DNA of 61,870 nucleotides from Ichthyobacteriaceae bacterium (GCA_016744755.1 JADGDT010000003.1:16548-78417); one strand, 5' to 3'; positions 30,825 through 38,790 are shown, counted from the stretch's first letter. Made by a program: numbers and translations. The notes: generated from the sequence alone by a model not told the origin.

Positions 30825-33077
30825 ATGAGTAAAAATGTAAATAGAAGAGAATTTATAAAGACTTCTGCAATGGGTACAGGAGGAGTGCTAGCCGCTTCGT
30901 CTATGTTCACATGGGTTCCAAGTTTCTTGGAAGATTCAGTAACACCTTTATTAGAGTCTCATGCAGAAAGAACCCCTACAGTATGTGAAGTATGCTTCTG
31001 GAACTGTGCAGGATGGGTTTACAAAGATAGAGATGGTAACATCCAAAAAATTATTGGAAACGAAGACGATCCAAATTCAAATGGTCGCCTTTGCCCAAGA
31101 GGTACTGCAGGAGTAGGAATCTACAACGATCCTGACAGACTAACAAAACCTCTAATGCGTGTTGGAGAACCTGGCAAGCAAGAATTCAAAGAAGTTGAGT
31201 GGGACGAGGCTTTAAATTTCATCACTGAAAAGATGAACAAAATTAAAGCAGAACACGGAGCAGAAGCAATGGCTTTGATGCACCACGGTACTGCTGGTCC
31301 TCATTTCAAGCACCTGTTCAAATCTTTCGGATCAAAATCAGAAGCTAAACCTGCTTCTTCTCAATGTTTGATTACTCGCGAATCAGGATTTATCAACACT
31401 TATGGTGCTGGTCTTGCTTCTCCTGAGCCTACTGACGTTAAAAACACTAAGTGTTTGGTATTAATAGGGAATCACATTGGAGAGAACATGCACAACGGAT
31501 ACGTACAAGAGGTATCTCACGCTGTAAATAGAGGTGCATCTATCATCACTGTTGATCCTCGTTTCTCTACTATAGCTAGTAAATCAAAATTCTGGTTACC
31601 TATACGTCCTTCTACCGATATGGCTTTATTGTTATCGTGGATGCATGTTATAATTAACGAAGAATTATACGACAAAAAATATGTTGAACAATATGTTTAT
31701 GGATTTGATGAATTAAAAGCTCATGTTGCAGGATACACTCCAGAGTGGGCGTATACTAAAACTGATATAAAGCCAGGAGACATTCGTAAAACTGCTCGTG
31801 AAATGGCTGCAGCATCGCCTTCAGTTATTATTCACCCAGGTCGTCACACTGCTTGGTATGGCGATGATACACAACGTACAAGATCTATTGCAATACTTAA
31901 TGCACTTCTTGGCTCTTACGGTAAAAAAGGAGGATACTATTTTCCTGAAAAAGCAAAACTTCCTGCTTATCCACATCCAGAATATCCACATCCACATTGG
32001 ACTGCTGGCGATTTAGCTAAGAAAGTTGGATATAAAGGAGCTATAGCTGGTATTACAAACGTAATACGTGAAGCATCTTTACCGGGAGCAAAAGAAAAAT
32101 TCGGACACGAATATAAAGGATGGTTTGTTGTTGCAACAAACTTAATTCAATCTATGCCTCAGAAAGATAAAACAATTGAAGCTCTTCAAAATCTAGACTT
32201 GGTTGTAGTAGTCGATACTATGCCAATGGAAATTACTGGTTATGCTGATGTTATTCTTCCGGAAGCAACTTATTTAGAGAGATACGATGTTGCACGTGTT
32301 GCGCAAAATCGTATTCCAAATATTGCACTTCGTATGCCTGCTGCAGAGCCAAAAGGCGATTCTAAACCAGGATGGTGGATTACTCGTGAGCTAGGTCTAA
32401 GACTTGGTCTAGACAAGTACTACCAATGGGAGAAGTACGAAGATGTTCTTGACTGGCAATTTAAGCAAGTTGGTTCTTCACTAGAGGAGATGAAAAAGAT
32501 TGGAGTTAAGCAATTCGACAAAAAATCTAAGCTTTACTTAGATGATGGCGAAGATTATTTCTTCAACACAAATACTGGTAAAATAGAATTATACTCTACA
32601 GATTTGGAAGCAATGGGCTACGATCCTATGCCAAAATACACAGAGCATGAGCAACCAGAAGATGGTTATTACAGATTGATTTACGGACGTGCTCCAATGC
32701 ACACATTCGGACGTACAATCAACTCTCCTAATATGAGTGATTTGATGGAAGAGAACGCAATTTGGGTCAATCCTAAAGTTGCTAAAATCAACGATATTAA
32801 ATCTGGTCAGGAGATTTGGCTAGAAAACCAAGATGGCATTAAATCTACTTTCTCTGCAAAAGTTAGAGTAACAGAGAGAATAAGACACGATTCTATTTAC
32901 ATCGTTCACGGATTTGGACATACAAATAAGAAGCTTACAAGAGCTTACGGAAAAGGTATTGCTGATTCTGAATTGATTACAAAGATTAAAGTTGATCCTA
33001 TTACTGGTGGTACTGGTATGAGATCGAACTTTGTTACGCTTTTAACTGAAAATCCACACAAAAAAGATATAGTATAA
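30825..33077 (+). CDS. psrA: Molybdopterin catalytic subunit, polysulfide/thiosulfate reductase PsrA/PhsA type
   Basis: Tat signal NRREFIK; CEVCFWNC...LCPRG Fe-S motif; putative Mo-ligand Cys in ASSQC; ADVILPEATYLER. Confidence 0.88.
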   Translation: MSKNVNRREFIKTSAMGTGGVLAASSMFTWVPSFLEDSVTPLLESHAERTPTVCEVCFWNCAGWVYKDRDGNIQKIIGNEDDPNSNGRLCPRGTAGVGIYNDPDRLTKPLMRVGEPGKQEFKEVEWDEALNFITEKMNKIKAEHGAEAMALMHHGTAGPHFKHLFKSFGSKSEAKPASSQCLITRESGFINTYGAGLASPEPTDVKNTKCLVLIGNHIGENMHNGYVQEVSHAVNRGASIITVDPRFSTIASKSKFWLPIRPSTDMALLLSWMHVIINEELYDKKYVEQYVYGFDELKAHVAGYTPEWAYTKTDIKPGDIRKTAREMAAASPSVIIHPGRHTAWYGDDTQRTRSIAILNALLGSYGKKGGYYFPEKAKLPAYPHPEYPHPHWTAGDLAKKVGYKGAIAGITNVIREASLPGAKEKFGHEYKGWFVVATNLIQSMPQKDKTIEALQNLDLVVVVDTMPMEITGYADVILPEATYLERYDVARVAQNRIPNIALRMPAAEPKGDSKPGWWITRELGLRLGLDKYYQWEKYEDVLDWQFKQVGSSLEEMKKIGVKQFDKKSKLYLDDGEDYFFNTNTGKIELYSTDLEAMGYDPMPKYTEHEQPEDGYYRLIYGRAPMHTFGRTINSPNMSDLMEENAIWVNPKVAKINDIKSGQEIWLENQDGIKSTFSAKVRVTERIRHDSIYIVHGFGHTNKKLTRAYGKGIADSELITKIKVDPITGGTGMRSNFVTLLTENPHKKDIV

Positions 33078-33610
33078 TGAGGTATGCAATGGCAATGGAC
33101 ACTAGCTTATGTGTCGGATGTGCGGACTGTGTAGTTGCATGTCAAACTGAAAACAATGTTCCTGAGGGATATTGTAGAGATTGGATAGTAGAAAATGTAG
33201 ATGGTACTTACCCCCTACTTGATCTAGAAATTCGTTCGGAAAGATGTAATCACTGCGAGGATACTCCATGTGTTAGAACTTGTCCTACAGGAGCTAGTCA
33301 CGTAATCGAAGGAGGAATCGTAAAGGTTACTCACGAAGAATGTATTGGTTGTGGTGCTTGTATTGAGTCTTGTCCTTATGATGCTCGTTATTTCCACCCC
33401 GATGGATATGTAGATAAATGTACTTTCTGCGACCATAGAGTTGCAGCAGGAGATACTACTGCTTGTGTATCTGTTTGTCCTACTCACGCTTTAACTTTTG
33501 GAGATCTTCACGATTCTGAATCTGAAATATCTAAACTTCTTGCTACAAGAAAATATAAAGTTTTAGCTGAAGAAGCAGGTACAAAACCTCAACTGTATTT
33601 CTTAACGTAA
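33077..33610 (+). CDS. psrB: 4Fe-4S dicluster subunit PsrB/PhsB
   Basis: CVGCADCVVAC, CNHCEDTPCVRTCP, CIGCGACIESCP, KCTFC..CVSVCP. Confidence 0.93.
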   Translation: MRYAMAMDTSLCVGCADCVVACQTENNVPEGYCRDWIVENVDGTYPLLDLEIRSERCNHCEDTPCVRTCPTGASHVIEGGIVKVTHEECIGCGACIESCPYDARYFHPDGYVDKCTFCDHRVAAGDTTACVSVCPTHALTFGDLHDSESEISKLLATRKYKVLAEEAGTKPQLYFLT

Positions 33611-33613
33611 ACT

Positions 33614-33735
33614 AAGCCTTTAGCTACTGGCTGTAAGCCTTTAGCTAAAGTATGCTTTAATATAATAATTAGGTTAGCAAATAGCAAAGGTTAGAAACCA
33701 AACGCTAAAAGCTAAAAGCCAAAAGCCAAAAGCTT
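33614..33735. repeat. Degenerate heptamer repeats in inverted arrangement
   Basis: agcctttagctactggct... facing ...gctaaaagctaaaagccaaaagccaaaagct. Confidence 0.55.
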
Positions 33736-33741
33736 ATAAAA

Positions 33742-34737
33742 ATGAAAGAAAGATTATTCACAAGCGGTAGAAACATGCTAGATATCGATCCGGTATTACA
33801 TGCATGGCACTGGGAAATTCCAGCATACCTATTCTTAGGAGGATTAGCCGCAGGATTAGTTTTCTTCTCTTCCTTTTACTATTTAAGAGGAAAAGAAGAC
33901 AAAATGCCAATAGCTGTAAAAGTTGCTCCTTTTGTAGCTCCTATAGCTATTATTATTGGTTTGATTTTCTTGTTATTAGACTTGAAACACAAACTTTACT
34001 TCTGGCAGTTGTACACAACTATCAGATTGGACTCTCCTATGTCATGGGGAGCTTGGACACTAGGTATTGTAATGCCATTATCTATTATCTGGCCTTTACT
34101 TTACTTAGATGATTTGAAAAAATATTTTTGGAACAAAAATATTATAATATATGAGATTATAGATTGGCTCGAGGGACTTATAAATGATTTTGATTTTACT
34201 AAATCATTATTAGGTTGGTTAAAGGAAAATCAAAAAGTAATTGCGTGGGCTAATATTATTTTATCAGTAATTCTCGGTGTTTATACTGGTATTTTATTGT
34301 CTGCATTTAATGCACGTCCTTTGTGGAACACAGCAATACTCGGGCCTTTATTCTTAACATCAGGTATATCTACAGCAGCAGCTACAATTATGTGGATGAC
34401 TAACGACCACTACGAAAGAATACGTTTTAGTAGAATTGACCTTTGGTTAATTGCAGTTGAGTTATTCCTAATTACTCATATGTTTATGGGACTTACTGCA
34501 GGTACTCAGGCTTCGGCCGAAGCAGCATCCCTGTTTATGGGAGGACCATACACAGCAGTATTTTGGATAGGAGTTGTTGCAATGGGATTATTATTGCCTG
34601 CAACACTAGAAATTATGGAATTAATAGGATTTAAAATTCCTATAGCGATTCCTGCTTTCCTAATTCTTGTTGGTGGTGCATTATTCCGTTTTGTAATGGT
34701 TGATGCAGGTCAATTATCGAGATATTTCTTCCAATAA
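33742..34737 (+). CDS. psrC: NrfD/PsrC membrane anchor
   Basis: W.WEIPAYLFLGGLAAG, LLLDL, SPMSWGAW, YTGILLS...RPLWN. Confidence 0.92.
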   Translation: MKERLFTSGRNMLDIDPVLHAWHWEIPAYLFLGGLAAGLVFFSSFYYLRGKEDKMPIAVKVAPFVAPIAIIIGLIFLLLDLKHKLYFWQLYTTIRLDSPMSWGAWTLGIVMPLSIIWPLLYLDDLKKYFWNKNIIIYEIIDWLEGLINDFDFTKSLLGWLKENQKVIAWANIILSVILGVYTGILLSAFNARPLWNTAILGPLFLTSGISTAAATIMWMTNDHYERIRFSRIDLWLIAVELFLITHMFMGLTAGTQASAEAASLFMGGPYTAVFWIGVVAMGLLLPATLEIMELIGFKIPIAIPAFLILVGGALFRFVMVDAGQLSRYFFQ

Positions 34738-34750
34738 ACTAGATATAAAG

Positions 34751-35269
34751 ATGTCTTATACACAACAAAAATATATGAATCCTTACGTAGCCGGAGTGTT
34801 ACTAGGATTAGTAATTACAGCATCGTTTGTAATAACTGGACAAGGTACTGGAGCAAGTGGTGCTTTCAAAGATATTATTGCAGCAGGAGTTGTAAAATTC
34901 ACACCTGAGTTTGCAGAGTCATCAGCATTCTTTAATCATTATGTAGGAGCAGAACATTCTCCAGCAAAAGCGTGGTTAGTTTTTGAAATACTAGGTGTAA
35001 TTGTGGGAGCAATTTTATCTGGAGCATTAGCCAACAGAATTGCTCTAAAAGTAGAACACTCACCAAAAATAACCTCTAAAACTAGAATTATTATGGCAAT
35101 TGCAGGTGGTGTACTTTTCGGATTAGGCTCTCAACTTGGTAGAGGTTGTACCTCTGGTGCAGGATTAAGTGGTATGGCAGTAATGTCAGCTTCTGGATTC
35201 ATTGCAGTAGGTGCAATATTCGGAGTAGGTTATGCTTTTGCATGGGTATTTAAAAAATATTGGGTATAA
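34751..35269 (+). CDS. YeeE/YedE sulfur-compound transporter (half-size)
   Basis: NPYVAGVLLG, LGRGCTSG; start reassigned to ATG 34751. Confidence 0.88.
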   Translation: MSYTQQKYMNPYVAGVLLGLVITASFVITGQGTGASGAFKDIIAAGVVKFTPEFAESSAFFNHYVGAEHSPAKAWLVFEILGVIVGAILSGALANRIALKVEHSPKITSKTRIIMAIAGGVLFGLGSQLGRGCTSGAGLSGMAVMSASGFIAVGAIFGVGYAFAWVFKKYWV

Positions 35270-35363
35270 ATAAAGAGTTTAATCGATAAACTGTTGAACT
35301 GTTTAATTGAAATACATGATAACAACTCAACAACTAAACGATTAAACAATTAAACAAAAAAAT

Positions 35364-35948
35364 ATGGCACCATTAATAACACCAGGAAGTGAATTTGACC
35401 TAATGTGGGCATTCATTATAGGTATAGCGTTCGGTTTCATTCTTGAAGCGGCAGGCTTCTCTACTTCCAGAAAACTTGTAGGGTTGTTCTACGGATACGA
35501 TTTTACAGTTTTAAAAGTATTCTTTACGGCAGCAGTAACAGCGGCTACAGGTCTATTACTTTTTAATCATTTCGGAATAGTAGATTTCGGAGCAATTTAT
35601 GTTCCTACTACATTTCTTTGGCCAACAGTCGTTGGTGGATCAATTATGGGATTAGGATTCTTACTAGGAGGTTTTTGTCCCGGAACCAGCGTCTGTGCAG
35701 CAGCTATTGGGAAACTAGATGCATTAGCATTCTTGGGAGGCTTAGTACTAGGTATTTTATTCTATACTTTAACTTTCGAATCAATTTGGATGGAATTCCG
35801 TAAAACTTCAAACCTTGGCGTACTCCTTATGTCTGATGTTATGGGAGTTTCTTATGGAGTATCTGTATTGATTTTTTCAATAATTGCAATAGCAACATTC
35901 TTACTTGTGAGTAAAATCAAGGAAAGAATAGCTGATGTTGAATACTAA
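35364..35948 (+). CDS. YeeE/YedE sulfur-compound transporter (half-size)
   Basis: GIAFGFILE..GF, GGFCPGT. Confidence 0.88.
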   Translation: MAPLITPGSEFDLMWAFIIGIAFGFILEAAGFSTSRKLVGLFYGYDFTVLKVFFTAAVTAATGLLLFNHFGIVDFGAIYVPTTFLWPTVVGGSIMGLGFLLGGFCPGTSVCAAAIGKLDALAFLGGLVLGILFYTLTFESIWMEFRKTSNLGVLLMSDVMGVSYGVSVLIFSIIAIATFLLVSKIKERIADVEY

Positions 35949-35960
35949 ACAAATAAAAAA

Positions 35961-36581
35961 ATGAGAGTTAGAAAAACATTATCTGCTACCGTTCTTATTG
36001 CTACAGGTGTATTTCTTGCATTTACAGGACTTTATGTCCCTAAGGAAGAAATTGCTCCTGAAGATTTAGTAAGAACATTAGAGCGAAACGAAAACTATTA
36101 TAGTGTTGATAAAGTTGCAGAGCAACTAATATCAAAAGATCCTTTACTACAATTAGTAGATGTTAGATCTGAAGAAGAATATAATAAATTCTCTCTACCT
36201 GGATCAATAAATATTCCTCTTGAAAAAATACTAGATGTATCAAGTCAGGATTATGTATATCAAGAAATTTACAATACTGTTTTTTATTCAAACGGTACTA
36301 CCGATGCTCTTGTAGCATTAATGGTAGTTACTCGTAAGGGCTACAAAAACAATTATGTAATGAAAGGAGGGCTTAACGAATGGGTTGAGAAAATTTTACG
36401 TCCAAAACACGAAGGTAACTTCGATATTACAACTGAAGAATTATACCAATTCCGTAAAGGGGCTCAAGCTTACTTTGGTGGAGGAAGTGCTACTCCAGTA
36501 GTAGATGCATCAGCAGCTCCAAAGCCAAAGAGAAAAGCTGTAAAACGTAAAAAGAAAGCCGTTTCTGGTGGTTGTGGTTAA
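35961..36581 (+). CDS. Membrane-anchored rhodanese-fold protein lacking active-site Cys, with C-terminal GGCG tail
   Basis: LVDVRS..EY..LPGSINIP, MKGGLNEW; loop VFYSNG; the only Cys is in the tail. Confidence 0.85.
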   Translation: MRVRKTLSATVLIATGVFLAFTGLYVPKEEIAPEDLVRTLERNENYYSVDKVAEQLISKDPLLQLVDVRSEEEYNKFSLPGSINIPLEKILDVSSQDYVYQEIYNTVFYSNGTTDALVALMVVTRKGYKNNYVMKGGLNEWVEKILRPKHEGNFDITTEELYQFRKGAQAYFGGGSATPVVDASAAPKPKRKAVKRKKKAVSGGCG

Positions 36582-36720
36582 TTTTAGCTAATAGCTCAAA
36601 GCTCGAAGCTGGAAGTCAGAAGCTCGAATTAACAAGTTTACTTCAATCTGATAACTTCAACCTTCTAACTATTTTTGCTAATAGCTAAAAGCTAAAGGCC
36701 AAAAGCTTAAAAAAACAGAT

Positions 36721-37356
36721 ATGAAAAATTTAAGTAAAATATTATTGTTCCTTGTTATTACTGCTTCATTTACTAGTTGTACTGAAGAGGTAAAACAAGA
36801 GTACGTTCTTACACCAGAAGAAATATTAGATTTCTATGTAAATGGTGGAAAAACAAATTCTAAATTCGCTCTAAGTGAAGAAGAGTTTGCTGACATAGTT
36901 CTATTGAAAGACACTGCAAATTATCAATTTATTGATGTTAGAAGTGCTCATGAATTTATAGGTTCTCATTTACCTGATGCTATCAACATCCCTTTATCTA
37001 AGAAGTTTTTATGTGATGCTAACATGAAACAATTAAATCAGGATAAAAAAATATTGGTCCTTTTTGGTAAAAACTCTTCTCAATCTGTAGCAACATTTTT
37101 ATTACTAAAGCAACTTGGTTTTAAGAACATGAAAGTTGCACTAGGTGGATGTCACTATTCTAAAGGATACTTGATGAATAACTTTGGTATGCGTACTGGA
37201 GCTTATAACGGAGAAACAGCAAGATATGACTATTCTAAAGTTGTAGCTGAAACATCGGGAGCAGGAGCAGCAGTTGCTAGTTCTTCATCGGCATCAAAGC
37301 CAAAGAGAAAAGCAGTGAAACGTAAAAAGAAAGCTGTTTCTGGTGGATGTGGTTAA
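36721..37356 (+). CDS. Rhodanese-fold lipoprotein lacking active-site Cys, with GGCG tail
   Basis: Lipobox FTSC; FIDVRS..EF..HLPDAINIP; loop VLFGKN. Confidence 0.85.
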   Translation: MKNLSKILLFLVITASFTSCTEEVKQEYVLTPEEILDFYVNGGKTNSKFALSEEEFADIVLLKDTANYQFIDVRSAHEFIGSHLPDAINIPLSKKFLCDANMKQLNQDKKILVLFGKNSSQSVATFLLLKQLGFKNMKVALGGCHYSKGYLMNNFGMRTGAYNGETARYDYSKVVAETSGAGAAVASSSSASKPKRKAVKRKKKAVSGGCG

Positions 37357-37482
37357 TAAGATAGGAGCTCGAAGTCAAAAGTTAGAAGTATCATGTATTC
37401 TTCAAAATAACGATTTCAACCTTCGAACTATTTTTTTGCCAATAGCTAATTGCTATAGGCCAAAAACTTAAAATAAAGAAAT

Positions 37483-38601
37483 ATGAAAAATTTAAATAAA
37501 ATATTAATCTTTCTTGCTCTTACTGCATCATTCACTAGTTGTAGCGATGAAGTATGTGTACCAGGAAAAGGTTTAAAGGATGTAACAGTAGTTAAAGACT
37601 CTGTGAATCCTACAGAAATTACACATAGATTCATTAAGGCTACTGGAGAATATGTGGTTTCAAATGGACCTGTTATAGTTTCTGCTGATGAAGTTTACGA
37701 AAACTTATCAGATTATTTAGTAATTGACTTAAGAAATGCCGATGAGTATTCTAAAGGGCATATTAATGGAGCTTTAAATGTTGAACTAGAAAAATTAGTT
37801 GAATACATGAATAATAAAGTTGCCGCAAATGCATACAAAAAAGTTGTGATTACTTGCCACTCAGGTCAATCAGCATCTTTTGCAGCAGGTATTCTACGTA
37901 CTATTGGGTACAACAACGTTTACTCTATGAAGTATGGTATGAATTCTTGGAGTAATGAATATCCTAATAAATGGGTAGCTAATGTTTCAAGTAAATTATC
38001 AAATAATCTAGAAACTAAAGATAACCCTAAGGGAAAATCAGTAAAGCTTCCAGTAATTAAATCCGAAAAACAACTTGCTTCGGCAATCTTAAAAGAAAGA
38101 GCCATAACTGTACTTAATAAAGGATGGAAAGCTGCAACTATAAGAGTTGATGATGTAACTGCTAATCCTGATAAATATTATATTATTAGTTACTGGCCTA
38201 AAGCAAGATACAACTCTGGACACCTTAAAGGAGCAATACAATATACCCCAAAAAAAGATTTACGAATGGACGCATCGTTAAATACTTTACCTACAAACAA
38301 AACTATTGTAGTTTACTGTTATACGGGTCAAGTGTCGGCTTACACTGTTGCATATTTAAGAACTCTGGGTTACGATGCAAAAACTATGGTATTTGGAGCA
38401 AATAGCTTTGAGAATTCTGTTTTAGTAAGTAAAGGTTGGGCTGGATTTACTGCAAGTGCAGTAGCCAATTCTTACCCTAGCATAACTGGAGCTAACCCAA
38501 CAAATGCAAGAGCAACAGTTGCTTCAGCTAAAGTACAACCTACTAAGAAAAAGAAAGCTGTAAAACGTAAGAAGAAAGCAGTTTCTGGTGGTTGTGGTTA
38601 A
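37483..38601 (+). CDS. Tandem rhodanese lipoprotein with two catalytic-type Cys and GGCG tail
   Basis: Lipobox FTSC; VITCHSGQSA and VVYCYTGQVSA. Confidence 0.9.
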   Translation: MKNLNKILIFLALTASFTSCSDEVCVPGKGLKDVTVVKDSVNPTEITHRFIKATGEYVVSNGPVIVSADEVYENLSDYLVIDLRNADEYSKGHINGALNVELEKLVEYMNNKVAANAYKKVVITCHSGQSASFAAGILRTIGYNNVYSMKYGMNSWSNEYPNKWVANVSSKLSNNLETKDNPKGKSVKLPVIKSEKQLASAILKERAITVLNKGWKAATIRVDDVTANPDKYYIISYWPKARYNSGHLKGAIQYTPKKDLRMDASLNTLPTNKTIVVYCYTGQVSAYTVAYLRTLGYDAKTMVFGANSFENSVLVSKGWAGFTASAVANSYPSITGANPTNARATVASAKVQPTKKKKAVKRKKKAVSGGCG

Positions 38602-38760
38602 TTTTAATTAATAGCTCTAAGCTCACTCAACTAAGAAAAATGCTAAAGGTTAGTTGCTAACTAAGCTAATGTACAAAGTATAAATGAAATGCAGTCTTGA
38701 GATTCCTGCTTTAAGTTATTATTTTAATAATCTATATTATCTCATTGTATTGATTGACAG

Positions 38761-38790
38761 AAAAAGCCATGCTATTAGCGTGGCTTTTTT
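38761..38790 (+). terminator. Rho-independent terminator of the sulfur operon
   Basis: aaaaagccatgcta-t-tagcgtggctttttt; a near copy lies at about 38828-38861. Confidence 0.7.

Follow-up and report, generated by a model that had tools for sequence, protein, structure and literature searches.

A conserved, cysteine-tipped arm matched within operons on rhodanese-fold proteins encoded beside split YeeE genes

The rhodanese-fold protein Sud of Wolinella succinogenes (PDB 1QXN) binds sulfur on a loop cysteine. Sud is periplasmic and is tied to the polysulfide reductase PsrABC (PMC2628731), and SoxY, a subunit of SoxYZ, bears a C-terminal swinging arm whose motif is VTIGGC (PMC11237559). It has been suggested that the SoxY cysteine feeds sulfur to YeeE-like SoxT channels, and transport by TsuA needs a conserved cysteine of the YeeE type (PMC11582611). 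A gene order of psrABC, a DUF395 pair and a rhodanese gene has been reported for Ca. Thermonerobacter, and similar psrABC genes for Melioribacter and Ignavibacterium (PMC6338057). Here, we describe the same gene order in a 61,870-nucleotide stretch of DNA (the window) from an Ichthyobacteriaceae bacterium (GCA_016744755.1 JADGDT010000003.1:16548-78417), where the operon psrABC–yeeE1–yeeE2–R1–R2–R3 closes at its 3' end with three rhodanese genes whose products share one cysteine-tipped tail. The original prediction, made from the DNA sequence, held that these tails are SoxY-like swinging arms that operate independently of Sox.

R1, R2 and R3 all terminate in the identical 15 residues KAVKRKKKAVSGGCG-stop, on cores that share ~29-31% identity (BLASTP). 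The rhodanese fold (PF00581) is recognized above the Pfam cutoff in each protein, and the top Foldseek matches are rhodanese domains; Foldseek and profile searches return generic rhodanese domains only, and no match spans the arm. An active-site loop cysteine, the mark of a catalytic rhodanese, is missing from R1 (YSNG) and R2 (FGKN) and is present twice in R3 (CHSGQ with C125, CYTGQ with C279). The sole cysteine of R1, C205, lies in its tail. Among 3979 open reading frames of at least 80 amino acids in the genome, 8 end in Gly-Cys plus zero to two residues, and R1, R2 and R3 alone among these are Lys-rich, so the coincidence of their tails is not a matter of chance. In two AlphaFold2 runs, the R1 core has a predicted local distance difference test (pLDDT) score above 90, with a helix at residues 156-173, and the region from about residue 176 onward has low confidence (pLDDT ~43-53). 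An arm of 30-50 residues is predicted to be disordered or flexible. The reading frames, the common GGCG tail and the distribution of cysteines agree with the original prediction, and the models are in keeping with the flexibility that it proposed.

That prediction overlooked the export signals, as well as the homologous spacers and a fourth GGC-tailed rhodanese discussed below. The N-terminus of R1 is basic, and hydropathy marks a hydrophobic helix at residues 6-24; both R2 and R3 carry the lipobox FTS-C20. By the positive-inside rule and the route of lipoprotein export, the tails of R1, R2 and R3 would lie on the periplasmic side, as for PsrA, and a periplasmic location is predicted for them. 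The residues that follow the lipobox are acidic, TEE in R2 (36741-36800) and SDE in R3 (37543-37560). They resemble the surface-export signal of Bacteroidota, and R2 and R3 might be exposed at the cell surface instead of in the periplasm.

Conservation of the tail among orthologues, on which the original prediction had staked its case, is extensive. In the best 120 of 184 R1 matches, the C-terminus is Gly-Cys or Gly-Cys-x in 117, the remaining 3 appear truncated or frameshifted, and the loop cysteine is absent from all 120. More distant relatives were taken from 150 listed representatives of 50% clusters, 132 of them full-length (185-270 amino acids) and 18 set aside by length; a Gly-Cys end is found in 127 of the 132, and 2 of the other 5 end in or beside a cysteine. 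Across 71 aligned loci, G204 and C205 of R1 are invariant, no cysteine occurs at positions 106-114 (0/71), and the arm spans 30-50 residues with a median of 34. For R3, the best 120 of 590 matches retain both loop cysteines in 109 cases and the tail in 69.

The tails also evolve in an unusual manner. Tailed copies of both R1 and R2 occur in 53 loci, of which 38 were kept after removing those at least 90% identical. In these 38 loci, identity over the 12 residues before Gly-Cys stands at 71% within operons as against 35% between them (0/10000 permutations), with the R1 and R2 cores at 27%, and the residue following the cysteine agrees between the two tails in 38 of 38. The R1 tail is closer to that of its own R2 than to that of its nearest orthologue in 26 loci and ties in 3. 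When 19 disjoint nearest-neighbour pairs of loci were chosen to limit kinship effects, four-way patterns at tail sites grouped 30 times by operon, 4 times by orthologue and never crosswise, whereas the corresponding counts at 2642 core sites were 28, 587 and 20. In a tree built by a quick method, with support from the Shimodaira–Hasegawa-like approximate likelihood-ratio test (SH-aLRT) only, the R1 cores and the R2 cores each group together on one side of a branch, with support values of 87 and 99. Because the cores divide in this way, the duplication that gave R1 and R2 must be old, and it is the tails that track the operon. The profile match between the two (hhalign 99.6%) likewise points to R2 as an old paralogue of R1, one whose N-terminus here resembles that of R3; most R2 relatives carry a membrane helix in place of this lipoprotein signal. 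Concerted evolution is thus limited to a peptide of 12-15 residues on otherwise divergent paralogues. Such matching suggests, and predicts, a single docking site shared by the tails.

At the DNA level, 5 of the 16 terminal codons vary within the window, every change being synonymous, and 43-46 of 48 nucleotides are identical per pair; the original prediction gave four of these positions, and the fifth is aaa/aag. The R1-R2 and R2-R3 spacers are identical at 96 of 123 aligned nucleotides (78%; 0/500 shuffles as high), and the signal peptides of R2 and R3 at 52 of 60. The best genome-wide match to the R1-R2 spacer extends over 119 nucleotides (E 1e-19), and the others are short. A dispersed repeat was tried as the source of this likeness and rejected: matches to 7-nucleotide units are found genome-wide, and the 119-nucleotide match is confined to the two spacers. 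DNA copying is indicated by the homologous spacers, by the R2 and R3 signal peptides, and by an R2 lipoprotein signal unlike that of most relatives. Of 31 further three-gene loci, a set that was not dereplicated, 3 have strongly matching spacers. Across loci, codon identity in the tails is 0.61 against 0.54 expected, and at four-fold sites it is 0.50, against 0.40 in a between-locus control. Gene conversion alone might homogenize the tails, with selection acting on the terminal Gly-Cys only and the matching itself functionless; this would account for the spacer and signal-peptide homologies, for tails that are codon-identical in some loci (13/13 in L099, 13/14 in L072), and for a K-to-E variant common to R1 and R2 in L096. 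It is harder to reconcile with matched peptides that rest on scrambled codons (2/12 in L146, 3/12 in L168, 3/11 in L129), with the wholly synonymous variation in the window (5/5 codons), or with similarity that ends at the stop codon in most loci (local score 11.3 within, 10.0 between), and we regard it as rather unlikely. Selection on the peptide is indicated because codon identity barely exceeds expectation and because matched peptides are encoded by scrambled codons. Tail matching is best explained by DNA copying plus purifying selection. The earlier claim that selection underlies tail identity therefore holds in part, since selection acts, but copying acts too.

The R1 family is present in 52 of 401 genomes sampled evenly across the phylum Bacteroidota, or about one in eight, these being heterotrophs that are rarely counted as sulfur cyclers. 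Both YeeE halves adjoin R1 in 50 of 52 fetched loci, the other 2 lying at contig ends. The neighbouring enzyme is PsrABC in 25 and Otr with cytochrome b in 16, with both modules present in 1; it is a tandem rhodanese in 7 and unresolved in 3. Because both YeeE halves are constant while the neighbouring enzyme changes, YeeE1-YeeE2-R1 is the core module. Co-occurrence with yeeE and psrABC, as originally proposed, is borne out in the loci compared; of the two partners named for the arm, YeeE is constant, but PsrA is exchangeable, and of 24 genomes having an R1 locus without psr, only 1 yielded a PsrA. The Psr, Otr and tandem rhodanese partners are all sulfur-compound enzyme families. In Otr-type loci, which encode an octaheme Otr-family cytochrome (above the TIGR04315 cutoff in 4 of 4 proteins checked), R1 is fused to YeeE2. 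A search for longer fused forms gave the YeeE2-R1 fusions P0243 and P0245, and the rest were unrelated multi-rhodanese proteins that lack the tail. Of the neighbours at tandem-rhodanese loci, two resemble SufS but score below the cutoff, and another is an aminotransferase of a different kind. The match to the YeeE/YedE domain (PF04143) and a conserved cysteine in each half identify a split, PmpAB-like form; C133 of YeeE1 is unchanged across all 71 aligned loci, and C105 of YeeE2 is invariant also. Tail type follows the partner (KKKK(K/R)EGC with Psr, K-x-V/I-x-GGC with Otr, LVRMGC with tandem rhodanese), although this is not independent evidence because each type is largely one clade.

Elsewhere in the same genome, an octaheme gene of the Otr family lies next to cytochrome b, with no YeeE match nearby (G000:C22:25616-28219). 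Two full-length YeeE genes each follow a gene labelled by eye as arylsulfatase-like (G000:C25:871-4389 and C177:8903-11472), and these two cassettes are near-duplicates.

By analogy with SoxY, the tail is probably a tethered persulfide arm that operates between periplasmic reductase or rhodanese sites and YeeE, a view held with modest confidence. The tail cysteine of such a membrane-tethered swinging arm would hold sulfane sulfur and pass it on in the periplasm, moving it between catalytic sites, those of the PsrA-type reductase and of the rhodanese cysteines of R3, and the split YeeE channel, with a persulfide or polysulfide as the likely cargo. R1 would be the core arm serving YeeE and would reach the invariant YeeE cysteines, as suggested for SoxY and SoxT, and R3 would load or unload the tail cysteine as Sud does for PsrABC. 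R2 and R3 may have acquired matching arms so that all three suit one docking site, with recurrent gene conversion spreading tail variants through the tandem genes and selection keeping the tails matched. The basic patch would serve as a variable spacer or recognition segment and not as a required anion trap, and sulfur could flow either toward import or toward the reductase. Otr-type tails, such as KRVIGGC, resemble the SoxY motif. This proposal bears on how sulfur reaches the periplasmic face of YeeE channels, and on the true substrates of Psr/Phs-like and Otr enzymes in non-model bacteria.

Several observations weigh against a sulfur arm of this kind. The tail is dispensable for R3 because 51 of its 120 relatives (best 120 of 590) lack it. 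Also, the orthologue's tail is closer than the paralogue's in 9 of 38 loci, and DNA copying accounts for part of the tail identity. Tail charge shows no covariation with YeeE1 or YeeE2 columns beyond the null in 35 locus pairs; R1 K135 against tail charge gives -0.58 where the 5th-percentile null is -0.53, a hint only, from one of three scans. A complex prediction for YeeE1, YeeE2 and R1 from 71-row alignments (score 0.01, mark 0.32) gives no answer either way. Furthermore, the best NCBIfam match of PsrA, PhsA, falls below its cutoff (522 against 694 bits) and does not fix a named substrate. The only expression data found for a related operon come from Melioribacter roseus, where the MerR-preceded psr/phs gene MROS_1774 is arsenate-induced and is a proposed arsenate reductase (PMC5492636); the available portion of that text shows no sulfur condition. 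Arsenate induction keeps alive a metalloid reading, with oxyanions of arsenic, selenium or tellurium as the substrates of the operon and with an arm thiol that, in place of sulfur, binds the reduced product and delivers it to YeeE. MerR-like genes precede many of the fetched loci, and YedE-like proteins have been linked to selenium transport (PMC11582611). The porin and tandem rhodanese of a second psr operon, described below, weakly match ExtI and ExtH of a Geobacter selenite/tellurite cluster, below cutoff, and ExtH (NF040901) is not among the 19 NCBIfam matches of R3 at E up to 0.01. However, the YeeE1-YeeE2-R1 module is also found beside Otr, and beside a tandem rhodanese that has a SufS-like gene next to it, and what these share is sulfur chemistry; no TGA-ended selenocysteine variant was seen among the R1 matches inspected. 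As(III) sites usually use vicinal thiols, so that a lone terminal cysteine would be a poor one, and a role in metalloid handling is judged improbable.

A different use of the cysteine can be imagined, in which the tail docks on a shared partner and makes or resolves a disulfide, with the YeeE cysteine or with another arm, while carrying no extra sulfur. Free periplasmic cysteines are prone to disulfide formation, a CxxC motif is also present in R2 of one clade, and the matching of tails within operons points to one shared reader. Such an assembly or redox tag is nevertheless quite unlikely, given that a minimum arm of 30 residues, the glycine before the cysteine, the rhodanese scaffold and the resemblance to SoxY suit a mobile carrier better than they do a fixed tether. 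The original prediction further supposed that the polybasic stretch works to concentrate polysulfide anions at the cysteine. Net charge over the last 20 residues is indeed +4 or more in 70 of the 127 R1 representatives and in 50 of the 71 loci, and Lys199 is 76% conserved. Yet charge across the 127 spans +12 to -8 (+1 to +3 in 37, zero to -8 in 20), at least two acidic residues directly precede Gly-Cys in 12 of the 71 loci, one tail family has EEE immediately ahead of GGC, and the second psr operon of the same genome encodes the tail AAEEDEGGC. Cationic capture thus fails as a general feature, and we consider a cationic antenna very improbable. Eukaryote-like prenylation of a polybasic-Cys end was set aside as well, as the charge is not conserved; we know of no bacterial enzyme for such a modification. 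The tethered persulfide arm is the reading that we prefer to these alternatives.

The second psrABC operon of this genome (L082; G000:C101:1-9185) lacks yeeE and encodes a PsrA 57% identical to that of the window. It also encodes a porin, a tandem rhodanese, a lipoprotein that resembles R3 (with an assembly gap) and a second lipoprotein with a rhodanese domain; a Crp/Fnr-like gene is divergent, and the operon is conserved in a genome of the same genus (L098). The second of these lipoproteins retains its catalytic cysteine and, with its acidic tail, is the fourth GGC-tailed rhodanese of the genome. The porin is ExtI-like (weak NF040900 match) and has an internal GGGCG in every copy seen; strands counted back from the C-terminal Phe suggest that this motif sits in an extracellular loop. 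Three full-length ExtI-like porins also have Gln-Gly-Cys directly after the predicted signal peptide. At L172, L173 and L188, a tandem rhodanese upstream of psrA has a GGC tail too, and the arm is therefore borne, in these operons, by proteins of five or more kinds. In R2 of one Bacteroidales-type family (L073-L080, L100-L107), a conserved CxxC lies in a helix past the dead catalytic loop, and a natural R2-R3 fusion of 541 amino acids has one terminal tail (L077:3578-5203).

A broader proposal would treat the Gly-Cys arm as an operon-addressed, plug-in sulfur tag, with YeeE1, YeeE2 and the pseudo-rhodanese bolted onto periplasmic enzymes unrelated to one another (Psr, Otr or tandem rhodanese) and conversion copying the arm to every exported rhodanese for one docking site. 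Together with the porin GGGCG loop, the arms would then link the cell surface with the cytoplasmic membrane through a covalent sulfur relay. This combined claim is offered tentatively and is, as a whole, more doubtful than not. If it were true, Psr- and Otr-type enzymes would act on protein-bound sulfur and not on free sulfur.

The coordinates of the features are collected in Table 1. The operon supplies the molybdopterin, Fe-S and NrfD subunits and the twin-arginine signal expected of PsrABC/PhsABC; PsrA matches PDB 2VPW/2VPZ with E 8e-189, and the RREF motif is present in its sequence. Among titled relatives, the closest match to R1 comes from an uncultured Flavobacteriales genome (85% identity). 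A promoter scan was at chance level (32 matches against 32.8), RNA folding of the spacers is weak (z -1.1 and -2.2), and no NiFe hydrogenase was found in the genome. A search of sequencing runs listed none from RNA. The intergenic regions 33611-33741, 35270-35363 and 36582-36720 consist of degenerate 7-nucleotide units, which are repeated on many of the genome's contigs.

Table 1. Positions of operon features in the window and of porin copies in other loci
Feature	Position	Strand	Remarks
psrA/phsA-type molybdopterin catalytic subunit	30825..33077	+	twin-arginine N-terminus, predicted periplasmic
psrB, 4Fe-4S subunit	33077..33610	+	Pfam Fer4_11
psrC, NrfD-family membrane anchor	33742..34737	+	PF03916, E 2e-46
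yeeE1, half of split YeeE/YedE channel	34751..35269	+	PF04143; C133 in RGCTSG
yeeE2, second half of split channel	35364..35948	+	PF04143; C105 in GFCPGT
R1, 206 aa	35961..36581	+	PF00581; membrane helix, no catalytic Cys, arm of ~33 residues ending GGCG
Shared tail 1, KAVKRKKKAVSGGCG plus stop	36534..36581	+	sequence
R1-R2 spacer	36582..36720	.	homologous to R2-R3 spacer; holds 7-nt low-complexity repeats
R2, 211 aa	36721..37356	+	lipobox FTS-C20 (predicted lipoprotein); catalytic Cys missing from the rhodanese domain; same tail
Shared tail 2	37309..37356	+	sequence
R2-R3 spacer	37357..37482	.	homologous to R1-R2 spacer
R3, 372 aa	37483..38601	+	PF00581 twice; predicted lipoprotein, tandem rhodanese, C125 and C279, same tail
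Shared tail 3	38554..38601	+	sequence
Terminator-like hairpin, operon end	38760..38790	+	14-pair stem and T run; consensus match only
ExtI-like porin copies	L082:5408-6442, L098:8491-9522, L034:3597-4640, L172:1-708, L188:3-338		GGGCG motif

The gene cluster is known in print, and the arm is apparently undescribed there. In the account of Ca. Thermonerobacter, the last gene is called a rhodanese-related sulfurtransferase, and the available portion of that text mentions neither the missing catalytic cysteine nor the tail nor multiple copies (PMC6338057). No description of the arm was found in the accessible parts of open-licence PMC and bioRxiv full text, nor in those of papers on MccSep (PMC13510729), Sulfurovum (PMC13609358), sHdr transferases (PMC11094781), cable bacteria (PMC13047784), selenoproteomes (PMC13188914) and Black Sea isolates (10.1101/2023.09.28.559987). 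Sud, which shares the rhodanese fold, gives a profile match of E 1e-6 that covers the domain only. R3 is the Sud-like catalytic member of the set, whereas R1 and R2 differ from Sud in having no loop cysteine and in placing their cysteine on the tail. DsrC and TusE hold sulfur on a cysteine close to the tip of their flexible C-terminal arm and serve DsrAB in the cytoplasm; they are likened to R1-R3 by description only, and they differ in location, fold and partner.

YeeE1 and YeeE2 are split members of the family of TsuA/YeeE-TsuB/YeeD, PmpAB and SoxT (PF04143), with one invariant cysteine each. TsuB is a cytoplasmic, TusA-like partner, whereas YeeE is here linked or fused to a pseudo-rhodanese arm that is predicted to lie at the outer face; no tusA is found in the operon, and the genome's one TusA-domain match is on another contig. 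The likeness to SoxY is that of a flexible C-terminal GGC arm in the periplasm, the location being predicted here. R1-R3 are not members of the SoxY family. PF13501 has no match in R1-R3 and none in the 97%-complete genome, with a control search positive in Thermus, and SoxZ and soxXAB are absent from the operon, the genome-wide search having covered SoxY alone; the Sox independence claimed in the original prediction is in line with this result. R1-R3 form a real family with a conserved, cysteine-tipped arm of the carrier type, which differs from SoxY in its rhodanese-fold scaffold, in its membrane or lipid tether, in its reductase partners, and in its multiple copies with operon-matched tails.

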